The notes beneath the pieces were generated by a model. The model made no database searches. It saw only the letters and a list, made by a program, of their open reading frames with translations, and had not been told where the DNA came from. The position numbers and the translations under genes were made by a program. A stretch of 64,000 nt of DNA from Sphyrna mokarran (lineage: Eukaryota): NCBI GenBank assembly GCA_024679065.1, contig JAGIQG010000009.1:110298001-110362000 (forward strand), in the 5' to 3' direction. Each line of letters opens with the position of its first letter. Position 1 is the first letter of the stretch. Positions 17,420-57,199 of the stretch are shown here, in pieces.

Positions 17420-17910
17420 CCTCTTCCATTCCTATAAACCCACTCATCCTAGTGATCCCCCCCTTCCCTATAAACCCACCCTTCCCCGTAACCCCCCCAA
17501 CTCCCTCCCCGCCCCAGTAAACCCCTCCCCCTCCGTTCCCGTCCGCCCCGCCCCAGTAACCCCGCCCCGCCCCCGCCCCCCCTCCCCCGCCCCGTCCCCC
17601 GCCCCGCCCCGCCCCGCCCCCGCCCCCGTTCCCCGCCCCGTCCAGTAACCCCCTCCCGCCCCGTCCCGCCTGTCCTGTCCCAGTCCCCGCCCCGCTCCCG
17701 CCCCGTCCAGTAACCCCTCCCGTAACCCCCTCCCCGCCCCCGCCCCGTCCCCCGCCCCGTCCCCCGCCCCGCCCCGTCCCGCCCCGTCCCAGTAACCCCC
17801 TCCCCCGCCCCGTCCCAGTAACCCCCTCCCCCGGCCCCGTCCAGTAACCCCCTCCCCCGCCCCGTCCAGAACCCCCTCCCCGGTCCCACCCCGTCCCGTC
17901 CCAGTAACCG
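17420..17910 (+). repeat. C-rich minisatellite/low-complexity tract expanded within a V-SINE remnant
   Basis: Units ~ccagtaaccccctcccccgccccgt; flanked by SINE sequence (17360-17415; 17940-18018). Confidence 0.85.
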
Positions 17911-18014
17911 CACACGTGGCTAATTCATCTGGCTCTGAAACTGGGGACAATTTAGCATAGCCAGTCCCCCTAACCTGCATATCTTGGGACACTATGGAGC
18001 ATTTAGCATGGCCA

Positions 18015-26067: not shown

Positions 26068-26889
26068 GTATGTAAGCAGCCATTTTGCGTTCACTCCTGT
26101 CTAAAACTACTGACTCACAGGGTATCAGTCTCCCTCTGGTACGCTTCCTGATGTTATATGTGGGATCGTGTGGATTATGATACCATTAACCGAGCACGGC
26201 AGATTTTCTCATATGCTGGTGCTTGGAAGATATTTGAACATAGCTTTCATTAGTGATGTAACTTTTGTTGCCTTCTTATCGATAAGGAGAGGAGAACTGG
26301 AGAGTCCTGAGGCTTTTTCAGTCTGCTCTGCTCAATTGTGTACAGTTAACCTTTTTTTTATAGGGTATTTCTTACAACTTCTACTAAAGATAATTGTTTC
26401 TAGTCACGCACACCATTAAATTATTTACATATGATACATAGAGGTAGGTCCGAGACAGTTGCTGTTTAATCACATCCTATTGGTAGTATCATATTGGTAG
26501 TATCCTATTGGTAGTATCATAATCATTGATGGATGGATGAAATGGTCAGTTAATGATGCCTTTATTACAGTTTCAATGCTGTTAGCAAGGATAATTGGCT
26601 ATATCTTGTTGATAGATGTAGTGAAACATCCTCCTTTGTCTGCGTTGTCTATTTCATGTATATGCAGAGACAGCCAGTTTACAGTGAGGGTGCTGCTGCT
26701 GATACACTAATTTTCCTGGCCCCTAGCTGACAACCTACTTAGTCCCCTCTCCGTCACATATCCATGCACACAAATGCACATGATCCAGCAGAGGTCACAG
26801 ACTAATGATCTTACACAGGAAAGATTGTATTTTTTTTCTCTCTCCTCCTGGGCTTCCCCTATGTTGTCCTGGCTGTGACCTGATCACTT

Positions 26890-27129
26890 GTGATGTACAG
26901 ATGCCGGCGTTGGATTGGGGTGGTAAGAACTCAGTAAGAATTTAGCAACACCAATTTATAATCCAACCGATTTATTTGATAGTAAAAAAGCGAGCTTTCG
27001 ACTCCTGTGTCTTCAGGCAAATGGCATTTGCCTGAAGAAGACACAGGAGTCAAAAGCTCGCTTTTTTACTATCAAATAAATCGGTTGGATTATAAATTGG
27101 TGTTGCTAAATTCTTACTGAGTTCTTACC
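26890..27129 (-). mobile_element. Penelope-derived foldback insertion (arms 26922-27023 / 27025-27129, tail on the left)
   Basis: Arms are reverse complements except one 3-bp indel and one substitution; 1-nt loop; TSD acctgatcactt at 26878-26889 and 27127-27138. Confidence 0.92.
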
Positions 27130-27812
27130 TGATCACTTAGCAGAGATGAGCAGAATTGGGATCTTTTGGTTAAATGCCTCCTTTATGCTGCAGTTTAAGC
27201 AACTGTGGAAATCACAATTCAATTGACTTCTTTGGTTCCTTGTCTTGCCCCATTGTAATTATATTCAAGTCGATGCTTGATTCACCCGCATCAATATGTA
27301 GTGCTCTTTTGAGCATTATCAATTGGCAAGCTTCTAATTTCCATTGATTATTGTTTAATTCCTTGCACTAGTTTGCACGCTATTTATTGTGTGACTCCAA
27401 TTTTCCTCTATCCCAGGCATCAATCAATGCTCTTTATAAACTAGATGTCCATTGACCAGCTGACTAGATTGAGCCAATTCTGCCACAGTTTAAGTAAATG
27501 CTCGAATTTCTGATGATGTTATGGGCACTTTGAGTCAGAAATGGGTTCAATGATGTTGACATCTCCAATCAAATTTGGGGCCTCCGAAGGTGTGTGGGTT
27601 AGATTGATTGGCCATGCTAAAATTGCCCCTTATGTTCTGAGATGCGAGGGATTAGTGGGTAAAATATGTAGAGATATGGGGGTAGGGCCTGGGTGGGATT
27701 GTGGTTAGTGCAGACTCAAGGACTAAATGGCCTTTTTCTGTACTGTAGGGTTTCTGTGATTTCTAAGGTTCATATTTCTGATCATTGATTTTATTTCTCT
27801 TTCACTCTGCAG

Positions 27813-27932
27813 AGGCATTCTTTCCCAAGGTTAATCCATGGCTGGTAATTTTCTGGGTGTTTGTAGGCCTTGTGATTGCCGTCATTGTTCTCGATATAAT
27901 ATTCCACAGAAGAAAACGTAAAATGATTAAAG
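27813..27932 (+). CDS. Butyrophilin-like protein, transmembrane exon
   Basis: EAFFPKVNPWLVIFWVFVGLVIAVIVLDIIFHRRKRKMIK: BTN-type FFP..PW, hydrophobic span, basic stop-transfer; phase 1-1; 120 bp. Confidence 0.9.
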
Positions 27933-29253
27933 GTATGATCATAGGTAGCAGTTCAACATTATTGCTGTAAAAAGACTGTAAAATGCTTTGTAGGCAACAT
28001 CCTTTGAAATGAAAATGGATGTGGGCACTGGTGATATTGATCAACAATTAAATACCCCTGTCATTCCATGTGGGGCACATGATGTAGTAAGTGAGAAATC
28101 ACAATTCTGTCTATTTTGCTGTCTCAACCACCTTCACTTTCGCTACTTCAAAGTTTGACACACTTTATCTCAGTGGCAAAGAAGAACCACTGCTGTGTTT
28201 TTATATGACTTTGGATTGTTGGATTCTAGAAATAACAATATTACCTATTTACGTAGCATCTTTGCTGTAGTCAAACTTGCTACACAACTGCACATTGACA
28301 TGGTGTGTAGAATATATATAGATGTATATGTACATACATCCAGATGGAGATATATGAGAGAACAGGCAGTGGACCATAGAGCAGGAGGGCCAGAATTATT
28401 GTCAGAACGTGAGGCGAATGTGGTGCTTTGGGTTAGACAGCTTGGTTCCCTCAAAAAACCATAACAACAGTGCTATACAGTAATTAAATGGAATACAGAA
28501 CTAAACTGCAATATTATTTGACTCGTGGGATATTGTAAGGATTCAGAAGTTCGTTATTAACAATGTGGAGCCTATTATGCCAACACCGTCCAAATTTGAT
28601 CTGATTTTTACCTTAGTGACGTTCTGAATTGAGGTATGTGGTTAGCTCATTATCATCACTATCATTAGAACATTAGACAGAGGTGAAATGTATGAACTCT
28701 ATGGAAGGTCATGAGTTCAATTCCCATTGCAGACACAAGCCTAAACTTATAATTCAGTAGAATACTGAGAAAGTGCTGCACTGTTGATGGCTTCATTGGC
28801 ATTAAACCATGTCTGCCCCTCAGGTGAACACAAAAGACCCCATACCTATTATTCAGAGAAAAACGAGGGACTTCTCCCTGAGTTTTTGACTGGCATTTAT
28901 TCCACAATCAGCTTAAAACAACCCGATCATTTCATTTCTATTTGTGGGATCTTGCTGTGCTGTAAATGGCTGCCATTTTTGAAAGTAGTTAAATGATTGT
29001 AAAGCAATTTGGATGATCTGAAGATGTGAAGGGGACTAAACAAATGCAAATTCTTTCTTTGGTCAAGATTTTAAAACCCAAGTGGAGTAGGATTTTAAAA
29101 ATTAATATATTTGTTCAGAGTGTCAGTCAATTATCTTTAAGATTTATTCCATTGATACAATAAGAAGGGTTTTAAATGTGTACCCAGTATTTCTTTATAG
29201 GTTGTGACAGAATCTCTCTCACACTAACACATTCTTATGTTCTTGACTTCCAG

Positions 29254-29280
29254 AACTACAACTGTTTTGCACTTTGGAAG
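29254..29280 (+). CDS. Butyrophilin-like protein, 27-bp juxtamembrane exon
   Basis: ttccag|AACTACAACTGTTTTGCACTTTGGAAG|gtaagc; (E)LQLFCTLE; phase 1-1; 21/27-bp mini-exons are typical of BTN genes. Confidence 0.75.
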
Positions 29281-29739
29281 GTAAGCTATCCTAATCATTC
29301 CAATACTGAATCAGAAAGATCTGTTTTTATGACTTTAGATTTTGAATATGAACTGTTTTAATTCCATGTATATTTTCATAAGTATGGAAAGCTATTGGAT
29401 GAAAGCGGGGGGAAAACACTATTCTGATGGCTTGCATCTGAGAATGCTAAGAGATGTTTGGAAATAGTAGTGGCTCTGACTGTTGTCTTTTCGACACCTA
29501 TGAATATGGAGGCTGTGCCTGAAAAATGCAGTGGGGATGGAGTGAGAGGTTGGAGGGAGTGGGGAGTGTGCTAAATGCTTGGTTCAAATAACTAAAAGGA
29601 AAAAAAAATCAGGTACCTACTGACCAGCAAGTCTAACATTAGAGCAAGTCAGCTTGTTGAGTCCATGAGATTAACACCACAAAAAGAGATGTGGGATAAT
29701 CAAGATTTCCTCATATTAGTTTACAAAGTTTAAGTTATC

Positions 29740-30146
29740 ACTTTTGGCCCATTGAGTCTGCACCAACTCTTATCCAGGCTTACTCCATAACCCCACTTAT
29801 TAACTCTGCTAATTCCCCTAACCTATGCATCTTGGGACACAAAGGAGAAATTTATTATGGTTACCCCGCCTCCTTTCAACCTGCACAACTATGAACACTA
29901 GGGGGCAATTTAATACGGCCAATCCCCTTAACCTGCCCATCTTTGGGCACTAAGGGGCAAGTTATCATGGCCAATCCACCTAACCTGCGCATCTTTGGAT
30001 TGAGAGGAAACTGGAGCTCCCGGAGGAAACCCACACAGATACAGGGAGAATGTGCAATCTCCACACAGAACGTGCTCCAAAGCCAGAATCAAAACTGGGC
30101 CCCTGGTGCTGCGAGACAGCAGTGCTAACCACTGTGCCACCCTGCC
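29740..30146 (-). mobile_element. V-SINE with internal tandem subunits
   Basis: Head reversed at 30090-30146; V-domain 29995-30065; repeated ~50-bp subunit. Confidence 0.75.
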
Positions 30147-30994
30147 ACCTTATGACAAATTTAAGAGTTCTTTGAGAAAAGATTGGCACGCACACAGCTG
30201 TACTGGAGGGTTGCTGATCAAGTTAAAGTATGAGATATTAGAAGTGTGTGTAGGAAGAAGAAGTGGTTAAAATTAGTGTGAACAAGTTCATCTTTCTTTA
30301 TTTTGGATGAAATTAATGCAGAGATGGATAATTCAGAGGCTCAAATTTGGTACCATTGGTTAATTATTGAAACTAACGAATAACATACAAATTGGAAAGA
30401 TGGTTCACTGTAAAGGGGGACTGTAATTGATGGAAGATATGGAAACACAGCTTTTCTTGTACACGGGATCATTGGTATGACTGCAGTCGCTAAGTCGTAG
30501 CCTCCGTGGAGTGATAACTGCTGTCAGATTGCCACTCCATTCTCTGTTCTTTACCCTGATGTGCAGCTACACCTTTCTTGTTTGAGCTTACAACTCAGGT
30601 TGGGTGAGAAAGGTACAGTGCTGCTGTCCAGAAATTCTCTCAGTCAACTGCAACAGAGTCAAGAGCAGAGAATCAGGAGGTTCCGTGGTGATTGGGTGGG
30701 TGCCAGAACTATGGTTATCCAGAAATTTTAATTCTTTTAACATTTTCTAAGTGGAACTATTATTGTAAAATAGTTCAAAGCATCTGAAGTTTGCGATTTG
30801 AAATCGGAGTTTCTGGTGGTTTCTGTTGAGGGGCAGTTGTCTAATGGAAGTTTGAACTATCGTGCAGTCCATTGCAGACTGGTGAAAGGAAAATATTCCT
30901 CATTCTTCATTTGCAACAGTGAGATTGACTTGATTTTATTTGACATTCAGTGATGGAAAAGCAATGTGTCAAAATATTGTTGTTATATTTGCAG

Positions 30995-31021
30995 GTTATG
31001 ACAACTTTGAAATCAATTATC
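30995..31021 (+). CDS. Butyrophilin-like protein, second 27-bp juxtamembrane exon
   Basis: ttgcag|GTTATGACAACTTTGAAATCAATTATC|gtgagt; (G)YDNFEINY; phase 1-1. Confidence 0.75.
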
Positions 31022-32090
31022 GTGAGTATAAACCTGTAATACATCATCTTGTGTACTGTGCCTTTATTATAGTAAAACATCTAAAGTCACTTAATTGGAA
31101 CATTATCAAAGAAAAATTAGTATTTTTTAATAGGATTGCTTGTTTAGAGGTAGGTTATATGTGGAATTATGATGATGGAGAGGTTTAAAGAGGAAATTCA
31201 AGAAGGGAGGCAGCTGAAGGCATAAGTGTCCAAACTGAAGCCATTAAACATTCTCAAGAGGCAAGAATGGGAGGAATGTTAAGTTTGAATATTATAGAGC
31301 AAGGAGGCAATGGTGGGATTTAAACACTAGGATGAGAATTTTAAGTTCAGGCAGTGCTAACTGCAAATGTAATTATGTTCAATTTCTATTTGTGACACTG
31401 CCCTACTATATATTAATCTCCTCCTCAACAGCACCCTGTGTTGATCTAACACCATTGAAACAAATGCATGTTTTTGAATGTTTTGACTTGTGTTCTAATT
31501 CTTAGTTGTGAGTTGAAAAAGGATAAAGCCAGAGCCAATCTTTACTCAGTTTACATTTATTCACAAAGTGAAACATTTCAAGTATATAATTCTTAACCTA
31601 ACTCATGCCTGTGTGAGTAGGTATCTCTTTAGTACTCAAATAAGAGCCCCGTCCCCCTGCATATATTTAAAGATAATTGATTCCAGCCCTGCTATTTTCG
31701 ATCTCTTATTTTAATTTTATGGCATCTTTCCTATAATCTGCTTTTGGAAGCATGGATTGCCAAACTGTAATTAATTGTTTATTGAATTGACAATGTCCTA
31801 CTAATCAAATTTATTATTTGTATCTGCATAAAAGGACACCCATTTAAAACAATGAATATTGTTTAAGTATCTCGTGACACAAGATACTTTTGCTCACACT
31901 ATTGTTCACAGTGACACTGTGTGCATTGACATTCCAACTACATTCCCTGCAGTGACACTGTATGGAGTGACATTCCTACTACCTCCCTCCAGTGACACTG
32001 TGTGCAGTGACATTCCTACTACCTCCCTCCACTGACACTGTATGCAGTGACAGTCCAATTATCCTTCCTCCACTGACACTGTGTGCAGTG

Positions 32091-32355
32091 AGAACTCAGT
32101 AAGAATTTAGCAACACCAATTATTAATCCAACCGATTTATTTGATAGTAAAATAGCGAGCTTTCAACACTCCCGTGTCTTCATCAGGCAAGTGCAGTGTT
32201 CTGGTCAGAACACTGCACTTGCCTGATGAAGACACGGGAGTGTTGAAAGCTCGCTATTTTACTATCAAATAAATCGGTTGGATTAATAATTGGTGTTGCT
32301 AAATTCTTACTGAGTTCTTACCACTCCAATCCAACGCCGGCATCTTTACATCATG
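32091..32355 (+). mobile_element. Penelope-derived foldback insertion (perfect 113-bp arms 32091-32203 / 32206-32318, tail on the right)
   Basis: Exact reverse complement with 2-nt loop GT; tail 32319-32355; TSD actgtgtgcagtg at 32078-32090 and 32356-32368. Confidence 0.95.
32223..32252 (+). ncRNA. Minimal hammerhead ribozyme core (Penelope type); mirror copy on the - strand at 32157-32186
   Basis: CUGAUGA-A-[GACAC GGGA GUGUU stem II, GNRA loop]-GAAA-GC-UC; palindromic AGCU helix III; stem I only ~2 bp (GC/GC). Activity untested. Confidence 0.7.
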
Positions 32356-32869
32356 ACTGTGTGCAGTGACATTCCAACTACCATCCACCCAGTGACACTG
32401 TGTGGAGTGACATTACAACTTTTGTCATCCTGTAATGCGCGAACAACCCTTCCTCGTGATATTAGGTAATAGTGACTTTAACCATACTACTCCCTGTGAC
32501 ACTGGGTGCTATCTGTGACATTGGGTTCTCCCTGTGACCCTGGATAAAGTGTGACTTATCCGATGGAACAGTGTTTTGCACTTGTTGGATGTTTATTTCT
32601 GTACATTGGGAAAATTCCCTTTGTGCCTCAAATGGGAAATCTGCTGGAAACACCGAACTCGGTGAAAGCATTGAAAATACCTGATCTTTGGAATTAAGAG
32701 CAAAATTTCCCAGTCATTCAGAGAAAATGAATTAAATGAAAGTTTCAGTTCTAAACAGGAATGTTGTGGCTCTCTAAGGGTTTAATAGATTTATTTAATG
32801 TCTAAACATTGAGTTAACCTGCCTGTAACATTGAGTGAATCTCTCTAATACTGCCCTTTCTTCTCCCAG

Positions 32870-33396
32870 CCTCCTTGAACTTGGATAAGGAAACTGTCCA
32901 TTTGAAACTGAAGTTGTCTGAGGATCAGAAAAGTGTCAGATGGACTGGGACGAGTAGTGATCTCCCTGAATCCCGGAAAAGATTTTCTGACATCCCCTGT
33001 GTACTGGCATCAGAGGGATTCACTCAAGGGATACATTACTGGGATGTGGAGGTGACTGGGAATGGTGACTGGGGTGTGGGAGTAGCTAAGGATTCAGATG
33101 ACAGGAAGGGACAAATCGAGCTGAAACCTGAGAATGGATTCTGGACTATTGGGTGGAAGAAAGACCAGCTGGTAGTGAACCAGCCCATCTCATCTGATCT
33201 TACCAACAACAGCCTCAAGAGGATTGGTGTTTATCTTAATTACAAGTCTGGGGCAGTGTCATTTTACAATGCAAGCTCAAAGTGTCATCTCTATACTTTC
33301 CGTGGGAATGAATTCAAAGATAAACTTTACCCCTTATTATATACTTATGAAAATGCATGTCTTAAAATCTGCTCCAGGTCAGGTAAACGTTTCTAG
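32870..33396 (+). CDS. Butyrophilin-like protein, B30.2 (PRY-SPRY) terminal exon
   Basis: ctcccag| phase 1; LNLDKETVH...LSED...VLASEGF..G.HYWDVEV...W.VGV...GFW...IGVYLNY..G.VSFYN; stop 33394-33396; AATAAA 33436-33441. The seven exons sum to 1392 bp (463 aa + stop). Confidence 0.93.
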
Positions 33397-34511
33397 CATC
33401 AGAAGTATTGAAAGTCTGCAACTTCACAAATAGGGAATAAAATTGGGCATGTGTCGGGAATTTAAAGTTTCTAAACAAGATGGGCACATTAGACACACGT
33501 TATATGCTCTGCCCGATATTAAGTGCCATCAATTTGAGTAGATATAATGGACAGAATTCTTGCACTGCAACAACTCATCAAAGCTCCTTTAACAGCACCT
33601 TCCAAACCACTGTCTGCTATCACTTAGACTGACAAAGGCAGCAGACACATGGGAACACCATCGCCTGGAATTCCACTCCAAGACATTCACCATCTTGACT
33701 TGGAAATAAGTCGCTGGGTCAAAATCTGGAACTTCCTCCTTAGTGGCACTGTGGTGTACCTACACTTCATGGATTGCAACACGACCTTCTCAAGAGCAAT
33801 CGGGGATGAGTAATAAAAAAGCTGAGCTAACTGGTGACACCACAAAGCATGAATAAATATAAAAAAAAAACAAATGCTTTTTGACTGCCTGCCATATCTA
33901 CTTTCACCCCCATTCAGATAAAGGCATCATGAAATGAGAATCAATTTGTTTATTTCATAATAGGCAAGGAGGGGATTTTCACAGTAACTTCATTGCAGTG
34001 TTAATGTAAGCCTACTTATGACACTAATAAAAAACTTAAATGTAGAAAATTGTATTTGGAATGTTGGAGAATGTAATTTAGCCCGGAAGCCTGTTCTATC
34101 GTTTAATGACATCATGGCTAATCAGCAAGCTAGCTCCATGAATCCTTTCAAACCGATCAGTCTCAGATTTAAGATTTATTTATTTAGTACCAATTGTCAT
34201 TCGCAGAAGATATTCCAAATCTCTACTATCCTTTGTACACACAAATGTTTCCAAATTTCACTGTTGAATGGTTTATTTTTTTGTATAAGGTGCCACACCT
34301 TGAGCTTGTGTTTTGGAGCACTGCCTCTTGTTCAAGTGGGTGGGAGTTCTGTTCACAAACGGGGCAAATATAGCTACAAGCTCATTTACTGGCTTACCCA
34401 GCTATGTAGCTGATACTTGCATTGCTTTGCAAGCCTTGTACATTTAGCAATCTTATTTCTATTTTTTTAATGTCCTTGCAAAAGGAAACTAAAAATGGTG
34501 GTGTAAAATGC

Positions 34512-34706
34512 AAACAGAAAATGCTGAAAAAAATCAGCAGGCCTGATAGGAGAGAGAAAAACAGAGTGAATGTTTTTTTGAATCTTTCTGATTTACAAAA
34601 GGTTGACTCTGTTTCTATTTCCACAGATGCTGCTAGACTGGTTAAGTTTTTCCAGAATTTTCTGTCTTTGTTTTAGATTTCCGGTATCTGCAGTATTTTG
34701 CTTTTA
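34512..34706. mobile_element. Degenerate inverted repeat with one-sided tail, probably an older Penelope-derived family
   Basis: aaacagaaaatgctgaaaa..cagcaggcctg..gaaaaacagagtgaa pairs imperfectly with ttgactctgtttc..ccacagatgctgctagactg..ttccagaattttctgt; tail 34670-34706; family assignment is from recognition only. Confidence 0.6.
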
Positions 34707-37030
34707 TATTAGTGTTTTGTCCAATGTGCCACTGTGTATTCCTGCTGCCCACACATTGTGACCTCTATTTCTTAACTGTTCTGTTTTAAGAGCTGGAGTG
34801 AAAACTTTGCACTCCTTTAATAGATATTTTACAAAGAAAGTACTGTTCGTTGTTTCTTCCAAGCCATACAAAAGTTGCCACATTCTGGAAACCCTCACTC
34901 GTGGCTGAGATTCTGAAAGCCACTGTACGTGAATGGAATTTTGGCTGGAACACCAAATTCTCCGTTCTCATTTGCAGCAGGGCGGGCATGAACGAGATCA
35001 AAGAATCCCATTCAAAGGGCCGTAGGCTGCTGTCCCACTTTGGGAGACAGGAAGATGAATGGTGAGGATTCCCCCACCTCAAGCGAGGGACAAGGTTGAG
35101 AAGGCAGTGGCTTCATGGATTCACCAATGAATTGAATTGGTGCTGATGGTGTTTCTCTGCACCACTAACCAGCCTTCCAGCCAACTGAGCTAAATTAACA
35201 TCCTACTTGCCACACATCAGTTATAAAACTATGGGTCCCATTAGCAAATTTTTCCTGTCACCATATAAAACACAATTCTGGTCCACATATAAAACACAAT
35301 TCTGGTCCAGTTAGTATTTATAAATAGAAAATGCAGGTGATCCATGTTCTAATGTTTACTTTTTTTTAATCAGACCTTACTTGGAGTATTGTATGCTTGG
35401 AGTACCTTTTCTAAATCAAGTTTATTACATCTATAGATTTGTTTTCATACCATAATATAAACTACATTTCTTGATTAAATTATGAGATTAAATTTTTAAT
35501 TTGTTTCACTGCCTTCTGACAGATAAACTGTAAGAATTATTGTTCTCATTGTTGGATCTCACTTTGTGTTTCCTGCTATTTCCTGAATGTCACAGCTCAT
35601 TTTGTCTGCTTTGTTCTTGGCACACAAAATGTCTATAATTGATGCAAACTAATAGGTTTCTATTAAAAGTAACCTTGAAAACTCTAAGTGACTGATCAAG
35701 AATGAGCCTATTATATTGAATGAAGGACACTTAAAGAATCAAAGGGTTTAAAAGGGAAGAGGAAGACTTTAGTGGAGGGCTATATCTCGCACATTTTTAA
35801 AAAGTGAAATGTATTCATGTTGGCTTCACAGCAAGGCAAAAGATAAAGGGCCATTTTGTAGGCTAAATGTTGGGTTACCAGGTTATGTTGATGGTACCTC
35901 CATTGTTTTACAAACTGTGTATTTTGCTATTTCAGTGGTAGTTTTTAAAGGTGGAAATTATGTAACTGGACAGCTAGTGAATGACCTGTATAAGTATCCC
36001 ATTGGCAAGCTGCATGAATAGTTCCAGTGGATGACTATGGAGACAAAAGTCTCCCAAATTGATAATTGAGAGGACCCTCAGCAAATAGCAATTTCTTTAA
36101 AATTGCAGTAAATTTCAGCAATCCTGGCTGCATAGCAACATTGAAGCAGGAAGTAATCTAATTCAGGAAGTTAATTCAGGGGCAGCACAGTGGTTAGCTG
36201 CGTCACAGCACCAGGGACCTGGCTTTGACCGTCATTGTCTTTGTGGAGTCTGCACATTCTACCATGTCTGCATGGGTTTCCTCCAGGTGCTTTGGTTTCC
36301 TTCCACAGTCCAAAGACAAAAAACAAAGAAAATTACAGCACAGGAACTGGCCATGCTGCCCAACTGAACTAAAACCAGTAAGTCTTTCCCCCGATTCTTG
36401 GGCGTTTCTCCAATGAGTCTCACGCTGGTCCCAAACCATCTCCCCAATGAGTCTCTCCCCGATCCCTAAGCATTGCCTCATGAGTCTCTCCCCAGATCCC
36501 TAACCACCTCTCCAGTGAGACTCTCCCCAGATCCCTAACCACCTCTCCAGTGAGTCTCTCCTCTGATCCTTAATCATTTTCCCAGTGAGTCTCTGATCCC
36601 TAACCATCACCTCAGTGAGTCTCTCCAACAATCTCAAACCATCTCCCCAAGGAGTCTCTCCCTAATGCCTAAGCATCGACCCAGTGAGTCTCACCCCAGT
36701 GAGTCTCTCCCCAGATCCCTAATCACCTCTCCAGTGAATCTCTCCCCGATCCCTAATTATCTCCCCAGTGAGTCTCTGATTCCTAACCATACCTCAGTGA
36801 GTCTCTCCAATGATTCATAACCATCTCCCCAGTGAGTCCCCCCAATTCCTAACCATCTTTCCAGTGAGTCTCTCTCCTCAATCCCTAACCATCTCCCAAG
36901 TGCAATTCTCCCCAATCCCTAACCATCTCCCCTATCAGTCTCTCCCCAATCCCTAAGCATCACCCCAGTGAGTCTCTCCCCAGATCCCTAACTACCTCTC
37001 CATTGAGTCTCTCCCCTGATCCCTAATCAT

Positions 37031-38426
37031 CTCAGTAAAGTTTGACAACACCAATTTTAAATCCAACTGATTTATTTGATAGTAAATCCATGAGCTTTCG
37101 GCCTTTGTGGCCTTCGTCAGGCGAATGAAGTGTTCTAGTCTCCAAAAGCACACATATCAGCATAGACAGTTTACAGATTGCTGATTAGAATGCGAATCCT
37201 TACACCTAACGTGCTATTCAAGTCTTAAAGTGGCTAACAGCAGAGGTTAGAGAAATGTGTATTGTCTCCAGACAGTACAGTAAGTGAGGTTTTTTGCTAA
37301 CTCAGGCAAGTCATGGGGGTTACAGATAGTGTGACATGAAGCCAAGATCCCTGTTAATACCGTCCTCGTGTGCGGAACTTGGCTATCAGTCTCTGCTCAG
37401 CGACTCTGCGCTGTCGTGTGTCATGAAGGCCCCCTTGAAGAACATTTACCCGAAGGTCGGAGGCCGAATGCCCGTGACTGCTGAAGTGTTTGCCCACAGG
37501 AAGGGAACTGTTTTGCTTGGTGATTGTTGAGTGATGTTCATTCATCCGCTGTCGTAGTGTCTGCATGGCCTCCCCAATGTACCATGCTTCGGGACATCCT
37601 TTCTTGCAACATATTAGGTGGACAACGTTGGCCAAGTTGCAAGAGTATGTACCATGTACCTGGTGAATGGTAGTCTCACGTTTGACGATGTCGTCCATGT
37701 CAATAATCTGGCATGTCTTGCAGAGGTTGCTGTGGCAGGGTTGTGTGGTATTGTGGTCCCTGTTCTCCTGAAGGTTGGGTAGTTTGCTGTGAACAATGAT
37801 CAGTTTGAGGTTGCGTGGTTGTCTGAAAGCAAGAAGTGGGGGGTGGGGATGGCCCTAGCGAGATGTTCATTGTCATCAATGATATGTTGAAGACTCCGGA
37901 GAAGATGTCATAGCTTCTCCGCTCCGGGAAGACTTCAGCAGTCACGGGCATTTGGCCTCCGACCTTCGGGTAAATGTTCTTCAAGGGGCCCTTCACGACA
38001 CATGACAGCGCAGAGTCGCTGAGCAGAGACTGATAGCCAAGTTCCACACACGTGAGGACAGTCTTAACAGGGATCTTGGCTTCATGTCACACTGTCTGTA
38101 ACCCCCATGACTTGCCTGGGTTAGCAAAAAACCTCACTTACTGTGCTGTCTGGAGACAATACACATTTCTCTAACCTCTGCCGTTAGCCACTTTAAGACT
38201 TGAGTAGCAGGTTAGGTGTAAGGATTCGCATTCTAATCAGCAATCTGTAAACTGTCTGTGCTGATATGTGTGCTTTTGGAAACCAGAACACCTCATTCGC
38301 CTGACGAAGGCCACAAAGACTGAAAGCTCATGGATTTACTATCAAATAAATCGGTTGGATTTAAAATTGGTGTTGTCAAACTTTACTGAGTTTACCCTAA
38401 TTCAACGCCGGCATCTCTACATCATG
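37031..38426. mobile_element. Penelope-like element with inverted pseudo-LTR arms (37031-37487 / 37932-38390), GIY-YIG fragment on the - strand, tail 38391-38426
   Basis: ~457-bp inverted arms; ORF 37354-37698(-) has VVHLICCKKGCPEAWYIGE..LRQRMNEH (PLE GIY-YIG); TSD ccctaatcatctc at 37021-37033 and 38428-38440. Confidence 0.93.
37092..37120 (-). ncRNA. Minimal hammerhead ribozyme core; partner copy at 38301-38329 (+) with damaged stem II
   Basis: - strand reads attcgc CUGACGA A GGCC acaaa GGCC GAAA GC UC atggat; stem I pairs at 5 of 6 positions including GU pairs. Confidence 0.65.
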
Positions 38427-39815
38427 ACCCTAATCATCTCCCCAGTGAATCTCTCCCTGATCCCTAATCATCTCCCCAGTGAGTCTCTGATACCTAACCA
38501 TCTCTCCAGTGAGTCTCTCCCTCCAGTCCCTAACCATCTCTCCAGTGAGTCTCTCCCTCCAGTCCCTAACCATCTCTCCAGTGAGTGTCTCCCTCCAGTC
38601 CCTAACCATCTCTCCAGTGAGTGTCTCCCTCCAGTCCCTAACCATCTCTCCAGTGAGTGTCTCCCTCCAGTCCCTAACCATCTCTCCAGTGAGTCTCTCC
38701 CTCCAGTCCCTAACCATCTCTCCAGTGAGTCTCTCCCTCCAGTCCCTAACCATCTCTCCAGTGAGTCTCTCCCTCCAGTCCCTAACCATCTCTCCAGTGA
38801 GTCTCTTCCCCCCAATCCCTAACTATCTCCCAAGTGTGTCTCTTCCCAATCCCTAAGTATCGTCCCAGTGAGTCTCTCCCCAGATCCCTAACTACCTCCC
38901 CACTGAATCTCTCCCCGATCCCTAATCATCTCCCCAGTGAGTCTCTGATCCCTTACCGTCACTTCAGTGAGTCTCTCCAACGATTCATAACCATTTCCCC
39001 AGTGAGTCCCTCCCCCCAATCCCTAACCATCTCCCCAGTGAGCCTTTCCCCCCAGTCCCTAGGTGTTTTTCCAATGAGTCTCTCCAACAATCCCTAACCA
39101 TCTCCCAACTGCGTCTAAGCATCACCCCAGTGAGTCTCTCCCCCCAATCCCTAACCATCTCCCAAGTGTGTCTCTCCCTGATCCCAAACCATTTCCCCAG
39201 CGAGTCTCTCCCCCAATATCTAGGTGGTTCTCCAGTGAGTCTCTCCCTGATCCCTAGGTATTTTCCCAGTGAGTCTCTCCCTGATCCCTAGGTATTTTCC
39301 CAGTGAGTCTCTCCCTGATCCCTAACCATCTCTCAGTGAATAGTGTTTCCATTTATTCATATAAATGGAAACACTACAAGATAGATGAGTAATTTCAGTG
39401 ACAAATTCACTAAGTGATCATTATGGTGGAGTTAAAGGGACTGGTGAGAGTGCACAATGCAAATGTTTTAGTTTGTGTCTCCTACAACTTTAAGTCTATG
39501 TACTTAATTTCTCATCACTATTTGAGACACAAGTACTGTAGATAAGAGAAAGCAGCAGGCTGAAAGCCCCTCACAGGAAAACCACACTTCCTCTCATCCT
39601 CTCTCCCCTCAGTTTCACATCGGTCTTCACTCTTAGTGTCTGGGTTCAATTATACTCTATCGGTCCCTCTAACTTCATTCTGAGAGCTGGGGACAGAACC
39701 CAGGACAAAGTGTGGAACTTAAGAACTCAGAACTTAATTAAGCCCTTCAGTATTGCAGTGACTATCATGGGGGAATTACTGAACTGAATGTGTTTAGCAG
39801 CAACGCAGGAACATT

Positions 39816-39874: not shown

Positions 39875-40282
39875 ATGGCTTCCAAACAACACGAGGAGAG
39901 TTGGACTGAAGATACAATTTGCCCTGTTTGTCTTGACTTTTTCATCAACCCAGTTATATTGCAGTGTGGACACAACTTCTGCCGTTCCTGTATCACCCAG
40001 CACTGGGAAAAGAAGAAGGCAAGATGCCCGGAATGTAGACAAAAGGTTCCAGAAATAAATCTCAGATTAAATTGGGCCTTAGCGAATCTGGCAGAGATAG
40101 CTCGACAAGTAATGCTGAAGCGGAAAGGGAAGGAAAGTAAGCTTCACTGTGAGGAACATCAGGAAGAACTGAAGCTGTTTTGTGAAACTGACAAGAAATT
40201 GATCTGTGTGATTTGTAGAGATTCACGGGAACACAAATCTCACAACTTCCTGCCAGTTAAAGAAGCTGTTGAAATCTACAAG
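39875..40282 (+). CDS. TRIM (RING-Bbox-CC-PRY/SPRY, TRIM27/TRIM39-like) copy A, exon 1: RING + B-box2
   Basis: ATG 39875; C3HC4 RING CPVC..CGH..C..C..CPEC and B-box C..H..C..C..C..H..H intact; donor AAG|GTAAAA. Confidence 0.93.
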
Positions 40283-40376
40283 GTAAAAGGGAACAGGTTG
40301 GATCACCTGATTATTTGATCACATTTTCAGGGTTGAACACTTTTTTTTATTCTCTGATTTTCTCTCCTAATCCCAG

Positions 40377-40472
40377 AATCGGGTGAAATCTTCCTTCGAT
40401 TCACTCACAGATAAGAAAACAATGGTTCTAGAAATGGAGCAGCAGCAGAAACAGAAGATTTCCCAAATTAAG
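40377..40472 (+). CDS. TRIM copy A, exon 2 (96 bp, coiled coil)
   Basis: tcccag| ... |gtagag; open frame NRVKSSFDSL...KISQIK; canonical TRIM exon size. Confidence 0.88.
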
Positions 40473-40565
40473 GTAGAGTGTCTCTGAGCTGATTTTTGAA
40501 ATTTGATTTTTTTTTTGTTGCTTTTATTACAGAAACATATTTTTTGCTTTTTTTTCTTCTTCTAG

Positions 40566-40799
40566 AAACAGTCGATCAGTCTGCAGATCCACATCACATC
40601 CGAATTCACTAAAATGCATCAGGTTCTCACTGAGAAAGAGCAGCATTTAATCCGAGATCTCAAGGAAGAAGAGGAAAGAATTCTCAAACCAATGGAGGAA
40701 AATCTTTGTGAAATTCAGGAGAATTTAAATTCTATTCAGGAGAAACTCTCAAAGTTGGAGAAACAGTTGGAACAAAAAGATGTAGTGATATTTCTGAAG
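40566..40799 (+). CDS. TRIM copy A, exon 3 (234 bp, coiled coil)
   Basis: ttctag| ... |gtgagc; ..ITSEFTKMHQVLTEKEQHLIRDLKEEEERIL...VIFLK. Confidence 0.9.
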
Positions 40800-41008
40800 G
40801 TGAGCGATTATTTTTCAGTTTACATCAGTGAAAGTTCACAGTTACAACATGATCCACATGAGCCTCCTCCCATCCTACTTCACTTTCCCGTCAACATATA
40901 ATTCTGTTCCTTTCTCGCTCGTGTTTATCCAGCTTCTCCTTAAATTATCTAAAATGTATCTTTTACCTCAGCGGATGTAGATTCATACTCTGCTTTAGTT
41001 CTGTAGTC

Positions 41009-41322
41009 ATGATGTGGAGATGCTAGTATTGGATTGGGGTAAACACAGTAACAAGTCTCACAACACCAGGTTAAAGTCCAACAGGTTTATTTGGTAGCAC
41101 AAGCCACTAACGTTTGTAGCATTGGACCTTCATCAGTAAGTGGGAGTTCTCTTCACAAACAGGGCATATAAAGACACAAATTCAATTTACAAAATAATGG
41201 TTAGAATGAGAGTCTTTACAGGTAATCAAGTCTTAAAGGTACAACAATGTGAGTGGAGAGAGGGTTAAGTACAGGTTAAAGAGATGTGTATTGTCTCCAG
41301 CCAGGACAGTTAGTGAGATTTT
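41009..41322 (-). mobile_element. Penelope-like element terminal remnant in TRIM A intron 3
   Basis: Same insertion as 51856-52170; internal part deleted; degenerate hammerhead (c ttcatcag on +). Confidence 0.85.
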
Positions 41323-41894
41323 AAAATCTTTTTCCCATCAGAAAAAGGTGAAACAGGGTACATCTGGGGTGCTGAGATTGAAATATTCCACCTTGTGTTA
41401 TGTTTATTGTTCCTATTTCTGGATTCTCTACAGGTGGAAACATTCTACACTGAATCTATCCAACCCCTTTCATCAGTCAGGTCTCTTTTCTACAGTAAAG
41501 TTGATCGATCTTTGCTATTAGTTGAATCCTCTCAGTTGCTGTCAATCTTTTTGATATGTTCTCCATACATTTCAGTAATCTTTGATTTGATTTGACTTAT
41601 TATTGCCACGTGTATTAGTATACAGTGAGGGAATGTCGAGGGGGTACTTGATTATGCTGGCTGCTTTTCCAAGGCAGTGCAAAGTGTAGATAGAATCAGT
41701 GGATGGGAGGGTGGTTTGCTTAATGGATTGGGCTAATATCTGTCTTAATGTTAACATCTGTAACATCCTCTTTCTAATCCAGCAATGAGAATTGACAATT
41801 CTCAGCAGTTTGTAACAACGTGAGTGTCATTTCTGCTTTCTGGGTATAGACAGTCCATCTCTGTTAACTCAGATTTGTGTTTTGTTTATTTCAG

Positions 41895-41917
41895 GAGGAA
41901 GTATCTCGGAAAAGGAG
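41895..41917 (+). CDS. TRIM copy A, exon 4 (23 bp)
   Basis: tttcag|GAGGAAGTATCTCGGAAAAGGAG|gtagga; canonical 23-bp TRIM exon, conserved in copy B. Confidence 0.85.
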
Positions 41918-42014
41918 GTAGGACATGAACTTTATTGAAAATGAATGCCAGTTGGTCAAATCACTCAGGAAAGTGTTTGTTGTCAATTTATAACCAACTC
42001 TTTAATATTTACAG

Positions 42015-42130
42015 GATAACAGATCTGGATAATCAGCTCTCGCTAGTAGATGGTATCCTGCCCACTGGAACATTCAATGGATCTTTACCGTTCCCAGTGT
42101 GGAGAGAAATGTTGGATTCCATTAACCCTG
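42015..42130 (+). CDS. TRIM copy A, exon 5 (116 bp linker)
   Basis: ttacag| ... |gtaaga; ITDLDNQLSLVDG...PVWREMLDSINP; phase 2-1. Confidence 0.88.
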
Positions 42131-43647
42131 GTAAGACTTATAGTTCCTTTATCCTGATTTCTTTGTCTTGATTTGAGTTGGTGGGGATGGCGGCAGGAAG
42201 CGAGTGTTCCGAGGTCCCCCTCACCCTCGTCACATCTGTCTCCAACTCCTTCTTTATATCACAGTGTCTTTAAAAGTGTGACCCTTCCCTTGGAGCTCTC
42301 AAGCAACTATGCATGGTTTGCTGTTCCTGATCCCTATAGAATAAACTCCTCTTCCCAGTCCCTACCCCCACCTGCTGGGTTAACATCAAGGGTGGAAGGA
42401 TGAGGCCTATAACTGGGCATTACTTGCCCACTTAAGTGCCTCAATTCACAGATTGGTGGAAAGACGTCTACGAGAATTCACTCCCATGGATCTATCAGGA
42501 TGGAAGCAGGAAGTTCCCTACATACATTCTCCGAGCTGAATAAAATATCTGCTTAGACACCAGACCTGCCACAGGAGAGAGTATTAAATTTCACCCAGAA
42601 TCTCTCAGTGCCAAGTTACAAAGGAATGTGGCAAAAAATGTCTTTCAATAGAATTAACTTTCATTTACCAAATCCACTTTTTAAACATGATCACCTTGAA
42701 CTGGCCAGCTGAAACTGCTAGCTCCCTAAATATCTTCTACAAATACATGAAGGACAAAAGAGTAACAAGGGAGAGAGTAGGGTCTCCCAAGGATTAGCAA
42801 AGTCATCTAAATGCGGATCTTTATGAGGTGGGTGAGATCCTAAATGAATATTTCTCATCAGGATTTACTTTGAGAGGAACATGGATGTTAGGGAACTTGG
42901 GGAAATAAAACAGTGATGTCTTGAGGAGTGTACATATTATAGAGAAGAAGGTGCTGAAAGTCTTAAAGTGCATCAAGGTAGATAAATCCCCGGGACCTGA
43001 TGAAGTGTATCCTAGGATATTTTGGGAGGCTAGGAGGGAAATTGCGGGTCCCCTAGCCGAGATGTTTGAATGATCGATAGTCATGGATGAGGTGCCTGAA
43101 GATTGGAGAGTGGCAAATGATGTGCGTTTGTTTAAAAAGAGCTGCAGGGAAAACTCTGGGAATTACAGGGCAGTAAGCCTCAAATATGTGGTGGGTAAAT
43201 TGTTGGAAGATATTTTGAGAAACAGGATCTGCAGGCATTTAGAGGTGCAAGGACTTGTCTGTCTTGTGTCCCACATCCTGACTACTGCTCAGAGACCTGG
43301 TATGTAACTCCTATCAGGGATTTCTTTGCAGTTTCTCAACTCTACCTACCCAGATTCTACACTTTTTCACCCAACATCATTTCTTGCTATCGCTTTCATT
43401 TCTTACTAATAGGGCAACGCAGCCCCCTCTGTCAATTTGCCTGTCTTTTTGGTACAGTGTGTATCTTTTGGTATTTAGTTCCCAGTCGTGATCCCCTTGC
43501 AGCCATTTCTCTGTGCTGCCCACAATATCTATCGTACCTGTCAATTTCAATCTGCGCTACAATGTAATTTTTCTCATTTTATATACAGCAAATACAACAT
43601 CCTCCATCCTGTATTAACCACTTTCTTTTTATCGTCGTCCCCTTATC

Positions 43648-44047
43648 TTGAGGTTGTTTTCGTTAGAAAGGAGGCGGCTAAGGGGGGATCTTATTGAAGC
43701 ATATAAGATAATTAGAGGTTTGGATAGGGTGGACAGTGATAGCCTTTTTCCTAGGATGGAGAAAGCTAGCACGAGGGGACACAACTTTAAATTAAGGGGT
43801 ATGAGTTATAGGACGGATATCAGAGGTAGGTTCTTTACTCAAAGAGTGATTAGGGAGTGGAATGCCCTGCCTGCAGCTGTTGTAGATGCGCCAAGTTTGG
43901 TGGCGTTTAAGAGGTTAGTTGATAAGTATATGGATGAGAAGGGAATGGTTTAGTTAGGAGGGGCATTGCTTTTTATTTTGGTCGGCACAACATCGAAGGC
44001 CGAAGGGCCTGTTCTGTGCTGTATTGTTCTATGTTCTATGTTCTATG
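43648..44047 (+). mobile_element. Young CR1 3' end, specific to TRIM A intron 5
   Basis: Open LRLFSLERRRLRGDLIEAYK..FFTQRVIREWNALP; tail (ttctatg)3; absent at the paralogous site ~58904. Confidence 0.9.
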
Positions 44048-44789
44048 TTGTGCCTGAAATCAGATTCCTAATCCTTTCCAAAAACTCTGTCCTATTATTG
44101 CTTCTGGAGGCTTAAATAACCTTTCCTGAGCTCTCCTTCCTTGTAACCTTTTCAATAATTTTTCATGCAGTTGTATCCTATCACGCACACACCCCCCCCC
44201 ACAACCCCGCCAAGCAAACCTGCTGCTTTGTTTCCCATTAACCATTGTACTTATAGTTTTACCCTTCCCTTCCCCCCACTTGTGAGTTTAATCTTGCTAG
44301 TTTTGTCATTGGGTTTCAATGACAATGGTAAATCATGATTATTATTGAGTGTCACGGTGGCGCAGTGTCTCTGTGAGATGCTGTCTCACTGCACCAGGGA
44401 CTCAGGTTCAATACTGGCATTGGATGACTCTGTGGGTTTCATCTGGGTGCTCCGGTTTCTTCCATAATCGGTGCAAACTTGATTGACTGGAGAGCCTCTT
44501 CTGCACTGTAGGAATTCAATCATATCTCTCTGTTGATCCTTATATCTCAGTGATCCCCAGTAAATCTCTATAGAATCCCCGGTGAATCTCTATCAGATCC
44601 TCAGTAAGTCTTGTCACCTGATCTCCAGCAATTCTCTGTTTAATCCCAAATGAGTTATTTTGATCTTTCTCCAGATACTTCCCCAATTACCAAATCTTCT
44701 CTCATGATTCTCCAGCCTGTAGTTCCCTGAACACAAGTTATTTCCTTCCCACTGCCCCAGTGACTCTAATTCTCGGCATTTTTCCCCAG

Positions 44790-45352
44790 TCTGTGTAACA
44801 TTGGATGTGGAAACAGTGAATCCTCACCTCGAAATATCTGAGGATCTGAAGAGTTTGAGACGGACCAGACTTGGGAGGAGCTTTTCCAACAATGTGAAGA
44901 GGTTTACACATTATCACTCTGTACTGGGATCAGAGGGGTTCACTTCGGGAAAATATTACTGGGAAGTGGAGGTGACAGGAAATCGGGGCTGGATTCTGGG
45001 AGTGGCCGCAGCGTCTGTGGAAAGGAAGGGAAGAGTTAAAGTGATGCCAGAGACTGGATTTTGGACCATTGGACAGATTGGTGATCAGTTTTACATGAAT
45101 TCCTCTCCTCCATCCTCTCTTCCTGTCGGTCTGATCCCCAAGAAAGTGGGAGTTTATCTCAATTATGAATCTGGAACAGTTTCATTTTACAATGCAGACA
45201 CCAAGTCTCATCTCCACACCTTCACTGGGAATAAATTCACCCAGAAACTTTATCCTTTCTTCTGGAGTCGGGATGAAAACCAATGGCTGCGAATCTGCTC
45301 CAGTTCTGATGAGGATCTGGAAATGGGTGGGTCCTCGAGGTGGTCACACTGA
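44790..45352 (+). CDS. TRIM copy A, exon 6: PRY-SPRY (B30.2)
   Basis: ccccag| phase 1; VTLDVETVNP..ISED..VLGSEGF.SGKYYWEVEV..; stop 45350-45352. The six exons sum to 1440 bp (479 aa). Confidence 0.94.
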
Positions 45353-45879
45353 CTTGCCCTGTGATTAGGTTCAGGGGCAGAGATCAAGGGTTGGGGGTCA
45401 GAAACCACCATTGACAACAGATTGTTACTAAATGTGTCATTTAATTAACAAATTGTAAAATCCCAACCAGACTGTAAATAAAAACAATATAAATAGAAAT
45501 ATCAGAAGATGAAAATAAAAAGTAAACTAAATATCTTGTGTCTCTTCTTCCTTCATTTATTCCCTGTTCAGTCGGTCAAAGCACCCAGTCCCATCTTTCA
45601 TCTCTTCCCGTTTCTCAGTCTTTAGCTGGGATTGCTTCCTGTTTCCATTTCTCACTTTATTCCCAGAGTGCAGAGCCTAGGGCGGAAATCCAAATTATGA
45701 TAAAGGATGACAATACTGGGAGTCTGGGCATATAATCCTTGTTTTTTAAAATTTTCCATTAAAATTCTGTTGTGTTCATTTCCACAGAGCTTCTCCTCTA
45801 CCCCCTCACTATTCTCTGCTTCTCCCCCAACACTCCCACTGCTAAGAGTGAGTTCCAGACCAAGCTGATGTCCTAGGTT

Positions 45880-46575
45880 AGCCCCACAAATTCCCACTGA
45901 CTATGGCAAGGTCTGCAAGACATCACAGTTTATAAGAAGAAGGCAGGTAAAAATCGCCAGCATCAATATACCCCTCTGCAATGAGATCAATGCATTCTAA
46001 GCCCATTTTGAGCAACAGGTCAAGGACAGCCCTCCCACTACCCTAGAAGCCTAGGCTGAAATTGTATCTGAGGTTACCGTTACAAACATCAGAGCTGTCT
46101 TCCTGAAAGTCAACGCACAGAAAGCGACTGACCAGATGAGAACTTCGATCCTGTGGGAACCACCTGGGAGGTGGTATTTGAAGCCATCTTTAACCTCTCC
46201 CTACACCAATCTGAGTTCCATATCTGTTACAGGATGCCAATCATCATCCTGGTACCAAAATAAACCAGGCAGTATGCCTTAATGACTATTGTCCAGTGAT
46301 TCTGACCTCCGTTATTATGAAGTGCTTCAAAAGGTCAGTCATGGCACAAATCAATTCCAGCCTCCCAGACTGCCTGGATCCATTATAGTTCACCTAGGGG
46401 CCTGAGGCTCAGCTCAGCCCTCTCTGACTGGATCCTGAACTTCCCAACCCACAGATAGCAGTCAGTAAGGATAGGCAACAACACCTCCATTACAATAATC
46501 CTCAACACTGGTGCCCCACAAGGCTGTGTCCTCAGCTCCCTCCTATACTCCTTTTATACCTGTGACTCTGTAGCC
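45880..46575 (+). mobile_element. Rex1/Babar-like LINE RT remnant (duplicate at ~60735-61415)
   Basis: CLNDYCPVILTSVIMKCF and GAPQGCVLSSLLYS motifs. Confidence 0.75.
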
Positions 46576-50728: not shown

Positions 50729-51139
50729 ATGGCTTCCAGCCAGCAGGTTCAGGGTTTGACTGAGGAGGCAATTTGCCCCATTTGTCTTGAATTCTTCAAT
50801 GATCCGGTTTCACTGGACTGTGGACACAGCTTCTGCCTCTCCTGTATCACCCAGTGTTGGGGAAAGGAGAAGATAAACTCCTGTCCGGAATGTAGAGAGG
50901 AATTTCCAGAAAAAAACTTCAGGGTAAATCGAGCATTAGCGAATCTGGCAGAGAAAGCTCGACAATTAAAGCTGAATCGGAAAGAGAAGGAAAGTAAACT
51001 TCACTGTGATGAACATCAGGAAGAACTGAAGCTGTTTTGCGAAACTGACAAGAAATTGATCTGTGTGATTTGTAGAGATTCACAGGAACACAGAGAGCAC
51101 TATTCCATCCCGGTTAAAGAAGCTGTTGAAATCTATAAG
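50729..51139 (+). CDS. TRIM copy B, exon 1: RING + B-box2
   Basis: ATG 50729; CPIC..CGH..C..C..CPEC and B-box ligands intact; donor AAG|GTAAAA. Confidence 0.93.
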
Positions 51140-51229
51140 GTAAAAGGAAAAAAATTTGATCACCTGATTATTTGATCACATTTTCAGGATCTAACATTTT
51201 GATTTTATGATTTTCTCTCCCAATCCCAG

Positions 51230-51325
51230 GATGGGGTGAAATCTTCCTTCCACTCTTTCACAGAGAAGAAATTGACAGATCTAGAACTGGAACAGCAACA
51301 GGCACAGAAGATTTCCCAAATTAAG
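51230..51325 (+). CDS. TRIM copy B, exon 2 (96 bp)
   Basis: tcccag| ... |gtagag; open frame; paralogous to 40377-40472. Confidence 0.88.
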
Positions 51326-51411
51326 GTAGAGAGTCTCTGATATTTGAAATTTGATTTTGTTTTATTGTCTCTATGACAGAAACATGTTTTTTGCATTTTT
51401 TCTTCTTCTAG

Positions 51412-51645
51412 AAACAGTCGATCAGTCTGCAGAGCCACATCACATCCGAGTTCACTAAAATGCATCAGATTCTCACTAAGAAAGAGCAGTGTTTAATCCG
51501 AGATCTCAGGGAAGAAGAGGAAAAAATTCTAAAACCAATGGAGAAAAACGTTTGTGAAATACAGGAGAATTTAAATTCTATTCAGGAGAAACTCTCAAAA
51601 TTGGAGAAACAGTTGGAACAAAAAGATGTATTGATATTTCTGAAG
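51412..51645 (+). CDS. TRIM copy B, exon 3 (234 bp)
   Basis: ttctag| ... |gtgagc; paralogous to 40566-40799. Confidence 0.9.
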
Positions 51646-51855
51646 GTGAGCGATTATTTTTCAGTTTAAATCAGTGAAAGTTCACAGTCACAACATGATC
51701 CACACGAGCCTCCTCCCCTCCTACTTCACTTTCCCGTCAACATACGATTCTGTTCTCTTTTCCCTTATGTTTATCCAGATTCTCCTTAAATGTATCTAAA
51801 ATATATCTTTTCCCTCTGTGGGTGCAGTTTCATACCCTGCTTTTGTTCTGTAGGT

Positions 51856-54627: not shown

Positions 54628-54650
54628 GAGGAAACATCTCGGAAGAAAAG
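54628..54650 (+). CDS. TRIM copy B, exon 4 (23 bp)
   Basis: tttcag|GAGGAAACATCTCGGAAGAAAAG|gtaaga. Confidence 0.85.
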
Positions 54651-54747
54651 GTAAGACATGAAATTTACTGAAATTGAATGCAAGTTGGTCAAATTACCTA
54701 GGAAAGTGTTTGCTGTCAATTTATAACCAACTCTTTAATATTTACAG

Positions 54748-54863
54748 GACAACAGATCTGGATAATCAGCTCTCGCTAGTAGATGGTGTCCTGCCCACTG
54801 GAACATTCAATGGATCTTTACCGTTCCCAGTGTGGAGAGAAATGTTGGATTCCATTAACCCTG
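54748..54863 (+). CDS. TRIM copy B, exon 5 (116 bp)
   Basis: ttacag| ... |gtaaga; paralogous to 42015-42130. Confidence 0.88.
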
Positions 54864-57195: not shown

Positions 57196-57199
57196 TCCC

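Follow-up and report, generated by a model that had tools for sequence, protein, structure and literature searches.

Three inverted Penelope-like insertions in Sphyrna mokarran and a tentative model for their formation by two ordered primings on one RNA

The insertions and their target sites

The stretch of DNA analysed here, hereafter the window, comprises 64,000 nucleotides (nt) of the shark Sphyrna mokarran (GenBank assembly GCA_024679065.1, contig JAGIQG010000009.1, positions 110,298,001 to 110,362,000 of the forward strand), and all coordinates below are counted from its first base. It carries three inverted insertions, A, B and C, which are shortened copies of an endonuclease-positive Penelope-like element (PLE), provisionally of the Penelope/Poseidon type, the clade name being taken from domain order and general resemblance. 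They are ordinary dead insertions. Each consists of two PLE arms set head-to-head, with their 3' ends outward, within a single target-site duplication (TSD), and in each only one of the arms carries a tail. An initial annotation of this DNA had proposed three inverted Penelope insertions with TSDs of 12-14 bp; all three are present, their PLE identity is upheld, and the TSDs of A, B and C measure 12, 14 and 13 bp. We suggest below that such units may arise when both ends of a staggered target cut prime reverse transcription on the same RNA.

In A, the left TSD (26878-26889) is followed by the tailed arm on the minus strand (26890-27023), which extends from the hammerhead region to the tail (26890-26921) and whose outermost base, 26890, matches neither the TSD nor the other copies; the tail-less arm (27024-27129, plus strand) then runs into the right TSD (27127-27138). 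The order of the arms is reversed in B, where the left TSD (32078-32091) is followed by the tail-less arm (32091-32205, minus strand), the tailed arm (32206-32358, plus strand; tail at about 32320-32358) and the right TSD (32356-32369). C is the largest unit, with a left TSD at 37021-37033, a tail-less arm of 898 nt (37031-37928, minus strand), a tailed arm of 500 nt (37929-38428, plus strand; tail at about 38391-38428) which is 95% identical to the left arm, and a right TSD at 38428-38440.

The chance of finding a repeated 12-mer within 5 nt either side of both arm ends is about 1e-5. The TSD words of B and C do recur in the minisatellites that surround them, at one and two further places, respectively; the phase of the array, however, restarts by exactly 14 nt (B) and 13 nt (C) across the insert, which shows that these TSDs are real duplications and rules out a chance origin from the minisatellites. 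The arrays themselves lie in the regions 31900-32420 (units of about 41 bp, around B) and 36400-39350 (units of about 34-36 bp, around C). That two of the three insertions sit in minisatellites could be due to chance, or to a bias in targeting or retention. The TSDs of B and C also have a higher GC content than the target sites of PAc, the Anolis carolinensis Poseidon element, which are reported to be AT-rich (Frangieh et al. 2024, PMC11167929).

Element identity and control copies

The coding evidence comes from the tail-less arm of C, in which 37357-37851 (minus strand) holds a stop-free 165-aa piece of a decayed PLE open reading frame encoding the GIY-YIG endonuclease. The Pfam match is weak (E=0.005; 17.5 bits, below the curated cut-off of 22.6). 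Inspection by eye shows two Cys residues that separate TY from WYIG, followed further downstream by two His residues, which gives the CCHH arrangement of PLE endonucleases, and the piece is 74-82% identical to its five best shark proteins. One shark relative, P0005, has an RVT_1 match (E=5e-9), and a tblastn search with it recovered both a reverse transcriptase (RT) and an endonuclease in another copy in the window (copy F) and the endonuclease part in C. The order of RT upstream of endonuclease is thus seen through relatives, RT being absent from A, B and C, which are 5'-truncated. No match to the RNase H family was found in a domain search of P0005. The remaining hallmarks of PLEs, namely an inverted or tandem 5'-truncated copy, an optional tail of 30-40 bp and a TSD, are shared by all three insertions.

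Two other identities were considered and set aside. A discrete mini-element resembling a miniature inverted-repeat transposable element is ruled out, as A, B and C are unlike in size, centre and subfamily, and an assembly artefact is unlikely, as the arms of A and of C differ and all three units are flanked by TSDs. A conserved 25-nt pattern of the PLE pseudo-long terminal repeat (pLTR) was found at 0 loci in metagenome contigs and 0 in viral contigs. Pieces of the PLE endonuclease region do occur in five predicted isoforms of shark genes (P0011, P0013, P0014, P0019 and P0021; septin 5a, XRCC5, PPP1R12A-like, IQCK and USP8), either as exonised element or as artefacts of the gene models.

Three non-inverted copies served for comparison. 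Copy D (5181-5296, plus strand; 116 nt) is a simple tailed stub of a related subfamily with a TSD of 11 bp (5170-5180 and 5296-5306). Copy F (51853-53773, minus strand) is a decayed, tailed PLE with remnants of RT and GIY-YIG, and a segmental duplicate holds this same insertion again as copy E (41003-41322). The duplicated block is large (about 40025-46551 and about 50882-61389; 87-99% identity) and carries the insertion twice, copy E lacking about 1.85 kb that is present in copy F. For E and F, no TSD of at least 8 nt was found in the ranges searched.

Outer ends and tail

The tail-less arms end 12 (A), 10 (B) and 4 (C) nt past the start of the motif TACTGAG, all within a stretch of 9 nt; if the bases shared with the TSD (acc, t/a and gag/ctc) are counted in, these figures become 15, 11 and 7 nt. 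Three ends would cluster within 8 nt with a probability of about 0.016 if drawn uniformly from 115 nt and 0.076 if drawn from 50 nt. The proximity of these ends to one motif, which the initial annotation had pointed out, therefore holds in all three insertions. It had also placed the start of this arm about 30-36 nt inside the element; the inner site is confirmed, but the tail beyond it is slightly longer, at 32, 37 and 37 nt in A, B and C, with 38 nt between the peaks of contig ends described below.

The tail-less ends overlap the TSD by 3, 1 and 3 nt in A, B and C (P about 0.002), in agreement with the 1-3 nt of microhomology first proposed for this joint. However, the tailed ends overlap it as well, by 0 (A), 3 (B) and 1 nt (C), and by 1 nt in the simple copy D (P about 0.03-0.04), so that microhomology is no peculiarity of tail-less ends. 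Nor is the tailed end a clean terminus, because the alignment of contigs extends as far as 32358 and copy E continues in the same manner. The idea that the tailed arm reaches the end of the element thus has to be abandoned: by analogy with PAc, this supposed terminus would be a second internal start of reverse transcription.

Arm lengths and symmetry

In all three insertions the tail-less arm reaches further in the 5' direction than the tailed arm (P = 1/8 taken alone), by 1 nt in A, 2 nt in B and 438 nt in C, where 37491-37928 is unpaired with the other arm; the figure of 444 bp given earlier for this extra stretch needs correcting. In A, and likewise in B, the stops of the two arms lie no more than 1-2 nt apart, immediately 5' of the hammerhead, with 11 nt separating the stops of A from those of B. 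Independent stops would yield this symmetry with a probability of about 0.007 over 100 nt, or 0.07 over 30 nt. The arms of B are identical (113/113 nt), those of A differ by one substitution and one 3-nt gap, and those of C, compared over 462 nt, show 23 differences whose direction is mixed; both C arms share a 2-nt gap which is absent from copies D, E and F. An editing signature in the C arms was considered and is unsupported, since the changes run both ways. The differences between the arms of A and of C are indistinguishable from ageing and cannot separate one source RNA from two. At the centres, A and B have 1 and 2 nt and no primer stem, while the junction of C holds a possible imperfect homology (GGGAA..ACT).

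The greater length of the tail-less arm had been taken to rule out a snap-back copy. This is true of an unmodified snap-back of the tailed arm, but not of a fold-back of the tail-less cDNA, discussed with the contigs below, or of a deletion that subsequently removed one side of the palindrome centre (PMC8701086). In the latter scheme there is a single priming at the outer site, the tailed cDNA snaps back, microhomology joins it to the target before the tail is reached, and one side of the palindrome centre is lost afterwards. The near-perfect palindromes of A and B, the 1-3-nt overlaps at the tail-less ends and the greater age of C, as judged from its 23 differences, would all be in keeping with this, and perfect palindromes are described as often losing one side of the centre (PMC8701086). 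We nevertheless regard it as quite improbable: the tail-less end falls at a site where the RT of PAc is proven to start, direct tandems use this end as well, and a later deletion should strike either arm, yet it is the tailed arm that is shorter in 3/3.

Hammerhead and RNA structure

A pattern search located a minimal hammerhead core (CUGAUGA, helix II, GAAAGCUC) in the right arm of B (32223-32252, plus strand), mirrored in its left arm, and the general pattern CUGA.GA / helix II / GAAAGCUC in 6/6 arms, in decayed form in A; catalytic activity is a prediction from this pattern. An Rfam search gave no hammerhead match in the insertions, and its matches to miRNA hairpins, which were below threshold and caused by the palindromes, were discarded. 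All arms of A, B and C, and copies D, E and F, read through the predicted cut site, D doing so because it starts inside helix II. A stem of 9 bp is predicted around the inner end site (about 32289-32340 in B, plus strand), with its 3' strand in the tail, and its nine pairs are kept in 6/6 tailed ends. Covariation is weak, with one pair changed on both sides, most changes being C>T or G>A, and copies E and F count as one insertion.

These features bear on the mechanism put forward in the initial annotation, in which each target end is primed on a separate template, either two RNAs or the two pLTR copies of a tandem transcript, perhaps held together by a hammerhead dimer; a protein dimer might also serve. 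The part concerning priming at both target ends is supported, as PAc cuts and extends both strands, starting at two internal sites between which the tail lies (PMC11167929). PAc is moreover a predicted dimer, minimal PLE hammerheads have been proposed to act as dimers (PMC4209133), and the very unequal arms of C would suit independent stops. The two-RNA part, which equals the dual-priming proposal for L1 (PMC2837659), is harder to sustain. It gives no reason why each of the three units should have one tailed and one tail-less end, nor why the tail-less arm should always be the longer, and it does not readily explain the matching stops of A and B unless both RNAs share one 5' end. We therefore consider it unlikely. 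Juxtaposition of the templates through the palindrome AGCU in particular finds no support here: AGCU is present in 6/6 arms, but the predicted gain from dimerisation is only -3.4 to -6.5 kcal/mol, the cut site is read through in all arms, and catalytic mutants are reported to have no effect on PAc insertion in vitro (PMC11167929).

Contigs from public runs

Two probes, the right arm of B (32206-32372, 167 nt) and the right arm of C (38100-38445, 346 nt), were aligned to contigs of public runs, contig depth not being taken as a measure of copy number or expression. In one run, 15,482 contigs aligned to the 167-nt probe (run X1) and 31,244 to the 346-nt probe; the PLE family of A, B and C is very abundant. 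For run X1, two of the six loose-end positions listed, 32320 (23 contigs) and 32358 (63 contigs), which lie 38 nt from each other, lead into long stretches of unlike sequence, whilst the remaining four are short and look like subfamily differences. At the outer of the two peaks the element continues 3 nt into the TSD of B. On the right arm of C, the go-back joints of direct tandems end at the inner site in 2/5 and at the outer site in 2/5 of those listed, so direct tandems use both end sites, and three of the seven skip joints listed for which the joining letters are known pick up again where the tail begins, at 38393-38399; these joints are single contigs in a region where the C probe aligns poorly, and are open to alignment bias.

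The skip joints count, if weakly, in favour of a further explanation, in which twin priming is combined with a fold-back. The outer cDNA would stall at the inner site after copying the tail, and the inner cDNA would run on, fold back at its 3' end and copy itself before switching to the tail cDNA, the duplicate arm thus being templated by DNA. This predicts the same polarity, with the spacer on the tail-less arm as in 3/3, and mirrored variants, and the possible homology at the C junction would speak for it. Palindromic junctions have been interpreted as self-priming in a rotifer PLE (PMC3846280), and small-hairpin inverted duplications with 2-bp homology are described at L1 breaks (bioRxiv 2024.12.14.628481). 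The centres of A and B, on the other hand, would be loops of 1-2 nt without a primer stem, and an additional, precise template switch is required, which would have to be seamless in all three units; on balance we find this explanation rather unlikely.

Two single contigs show opposite-strand joints. One from run X1 connects the inner site (32319) with the end of the tail (32352), so that a tail-less and a tailed end meet tail to tail; this is perhaps an insertion into the element's own end. The other, from run X4, joins 38335 to 38383 with a short side of 41 letters and could represent a unit whose tailed arm barely exceeds the tail.

Other features of the window

A very C-rich, degenerate tandem array with the recurring word CCAGTAAC occupies 17495-17913. 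A SINE-like repeat, which may resemble the shark HE1 SINE, is present in many copies on both strands (at 2054, 3598, 8424, 20877, 21080, 29875, 47183, 61827 and others).

A model of ordered priming on one RNA

The explanation we favour, to which we assign a probability of roughly 45%, is that A, B and C were formed when both 3' ends of a staggered cut of 12-14 nt served as primers on a single uncleaved RNA, with starts of reverse transcription about 35 nt apart. One primer would start at the inner site and the other further 3' on the RNA. The inner-primed cDNA, which becomes the tail-less arm, would lead, and the outer-primed, tailed cDNA would follow on the same template and displace it, strand displacement by the RT being assumed. 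The RNA would survive the first copying because no RNase H is evident. As the follower could not overtake the leader, it would stop at the same place, as in A and B, or earlier, as in C, and the stop shared by both arms of A and of B is probably the 5' end of the RNA, a short way upstream of the hammerhead. Joining of the two cDNAs at their 3' ends, with hardly any homology or none, and fill-in would follow. On this view the duplication arises because one RNA segment is copied twice, a duplicating form of twin priming.

Several observations favour this ordered priming: the polarity in 3/3, the symmetry of the stops in A and B, the variants shared between arms, the two peaks of contig ends, the tandem joints at both sites, the TSD overlap at both types of end, and the lack of a primer stem at the centres of A and B. 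By analogy, the properties of PAc (extension of both strands, two start sites and a predicted dimer; PMC11167929) may also be counted in its favour.

A number of points weigh against it and it should be considered with caution. There are only three insertions, and two of the three length offsets are just 1-2 nt and could have arisen when a perfect palindrome was altered later. Two RNAs made from one locus, a fold-back, or conversion of one arm by the other at a later time can also account for the identity of the arms. The outer contig peak at 32358 is where the reference passes into the TSD of B, so that it pools all ends at or beyond this position. The skip joints suggest, if weakly, that synthesis of the outer cDNA often comes to a halt at the inner site, as the fold-back explanation would have it. 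Finally, the start sites of PAc are alike on both strands and its priming occurs without homology to the cut DNA, and the available text on PAc describes neither two primings on one RNA nor strand displacement (PMC11167929).

If the ordered-priming model is generalised, PLEs would use one RNA as a template two times in a set order, the inner-site cDNA leading and the tail-site cDNA following by strand displacement, and the tail-less arm would never be the shorter on its 5' side. We offer this polarity rule tentatively, at somewhat less than even odds. It was not found in the PLE literature searched, figures and the PLE reviews of 2005-2006 being outside that search. If true, the tail, the inverted pLTR and the palindromic stubs would all have a single mechanism behind them. 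What this analysis adds is the polarity in 3/3, the symmetry of the stops in A and B and the variants shared between arms, and this amounts to a modest mechanistic lead; as a sample, three copies are a small addition only. Given the great abundance of the family, the polarity rule could be examined in thousands of copies of a shark assembly.

Comparison with known systems

Endonuclease-positive PLEs are described as having an inverted, 5'-truncated copy and a tail of 30-40 bp, often at one end only, by a mechanism called undefined (Craig et al. 2021, PMC8557442), and the rotifer element Pen2a_Av has the same layout, with palindromic junctions interpreted as self-priming (Arkhipova et al. 2013, PMC3846280). 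The shared integration rule of the initial annotation is therefore not new as a layout. A, B and C agree with the published units, as far as these are described there, in their head-to-head arms within one TSD, one-sided tail, palindromic junctions, C-terminal GIY-YIG and pLTR hammerhead, and they are of the same kind as the rotifer units except that the TSD is 12-14 bp here and 8-10 bp there. In the survey of minimal PLE hammerheads in which action as dimers was proposed, opposite-strand pairs 100-700 bp apart are reported (Cervera and de la Pena 2014, PMC4209133).

PAc provides the closest biochemical parallel. It cuts and extends both strands, two internal starts bound its tail, and insertion in vitro is unchanged in hammerhead catalytic mutants (Frangieh et al. 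2024, PMC11167929); the in vitro work, in the available text, covers first-strand priming only and offers no model for inverted units. A, B and C have in common with it two internal end sites, one on each side of the tail, a stem-loop (predicted here) at the inner site, an uncleaved RNA template and the use of either strand. PAc, as described, differs in showing no primer homology and strand-independent starts, whereas the insertions here overlap the TSD by 0-3 nt and have one end of each kind per unit.

The L1 system, for which twin priming was defined and dual priming by two mRNAs proposed (Meyer et al. 2010, PMC2837659), resembles that of A, B and C in that both target ends prime and inverted fragments lie in one TSD, joined with little or no homology. 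The L1 fragments described are non-overlapping, with an internal deletion, whereas here 105-460 nt are present twice, the contrast already drawn by the initial annotation, and there is no poly(A) tail. The geometry of twin priming, with inverted fragments in one TSD, nevertheless fits all three insertions, and we tentatively infer a single RNA template for each.

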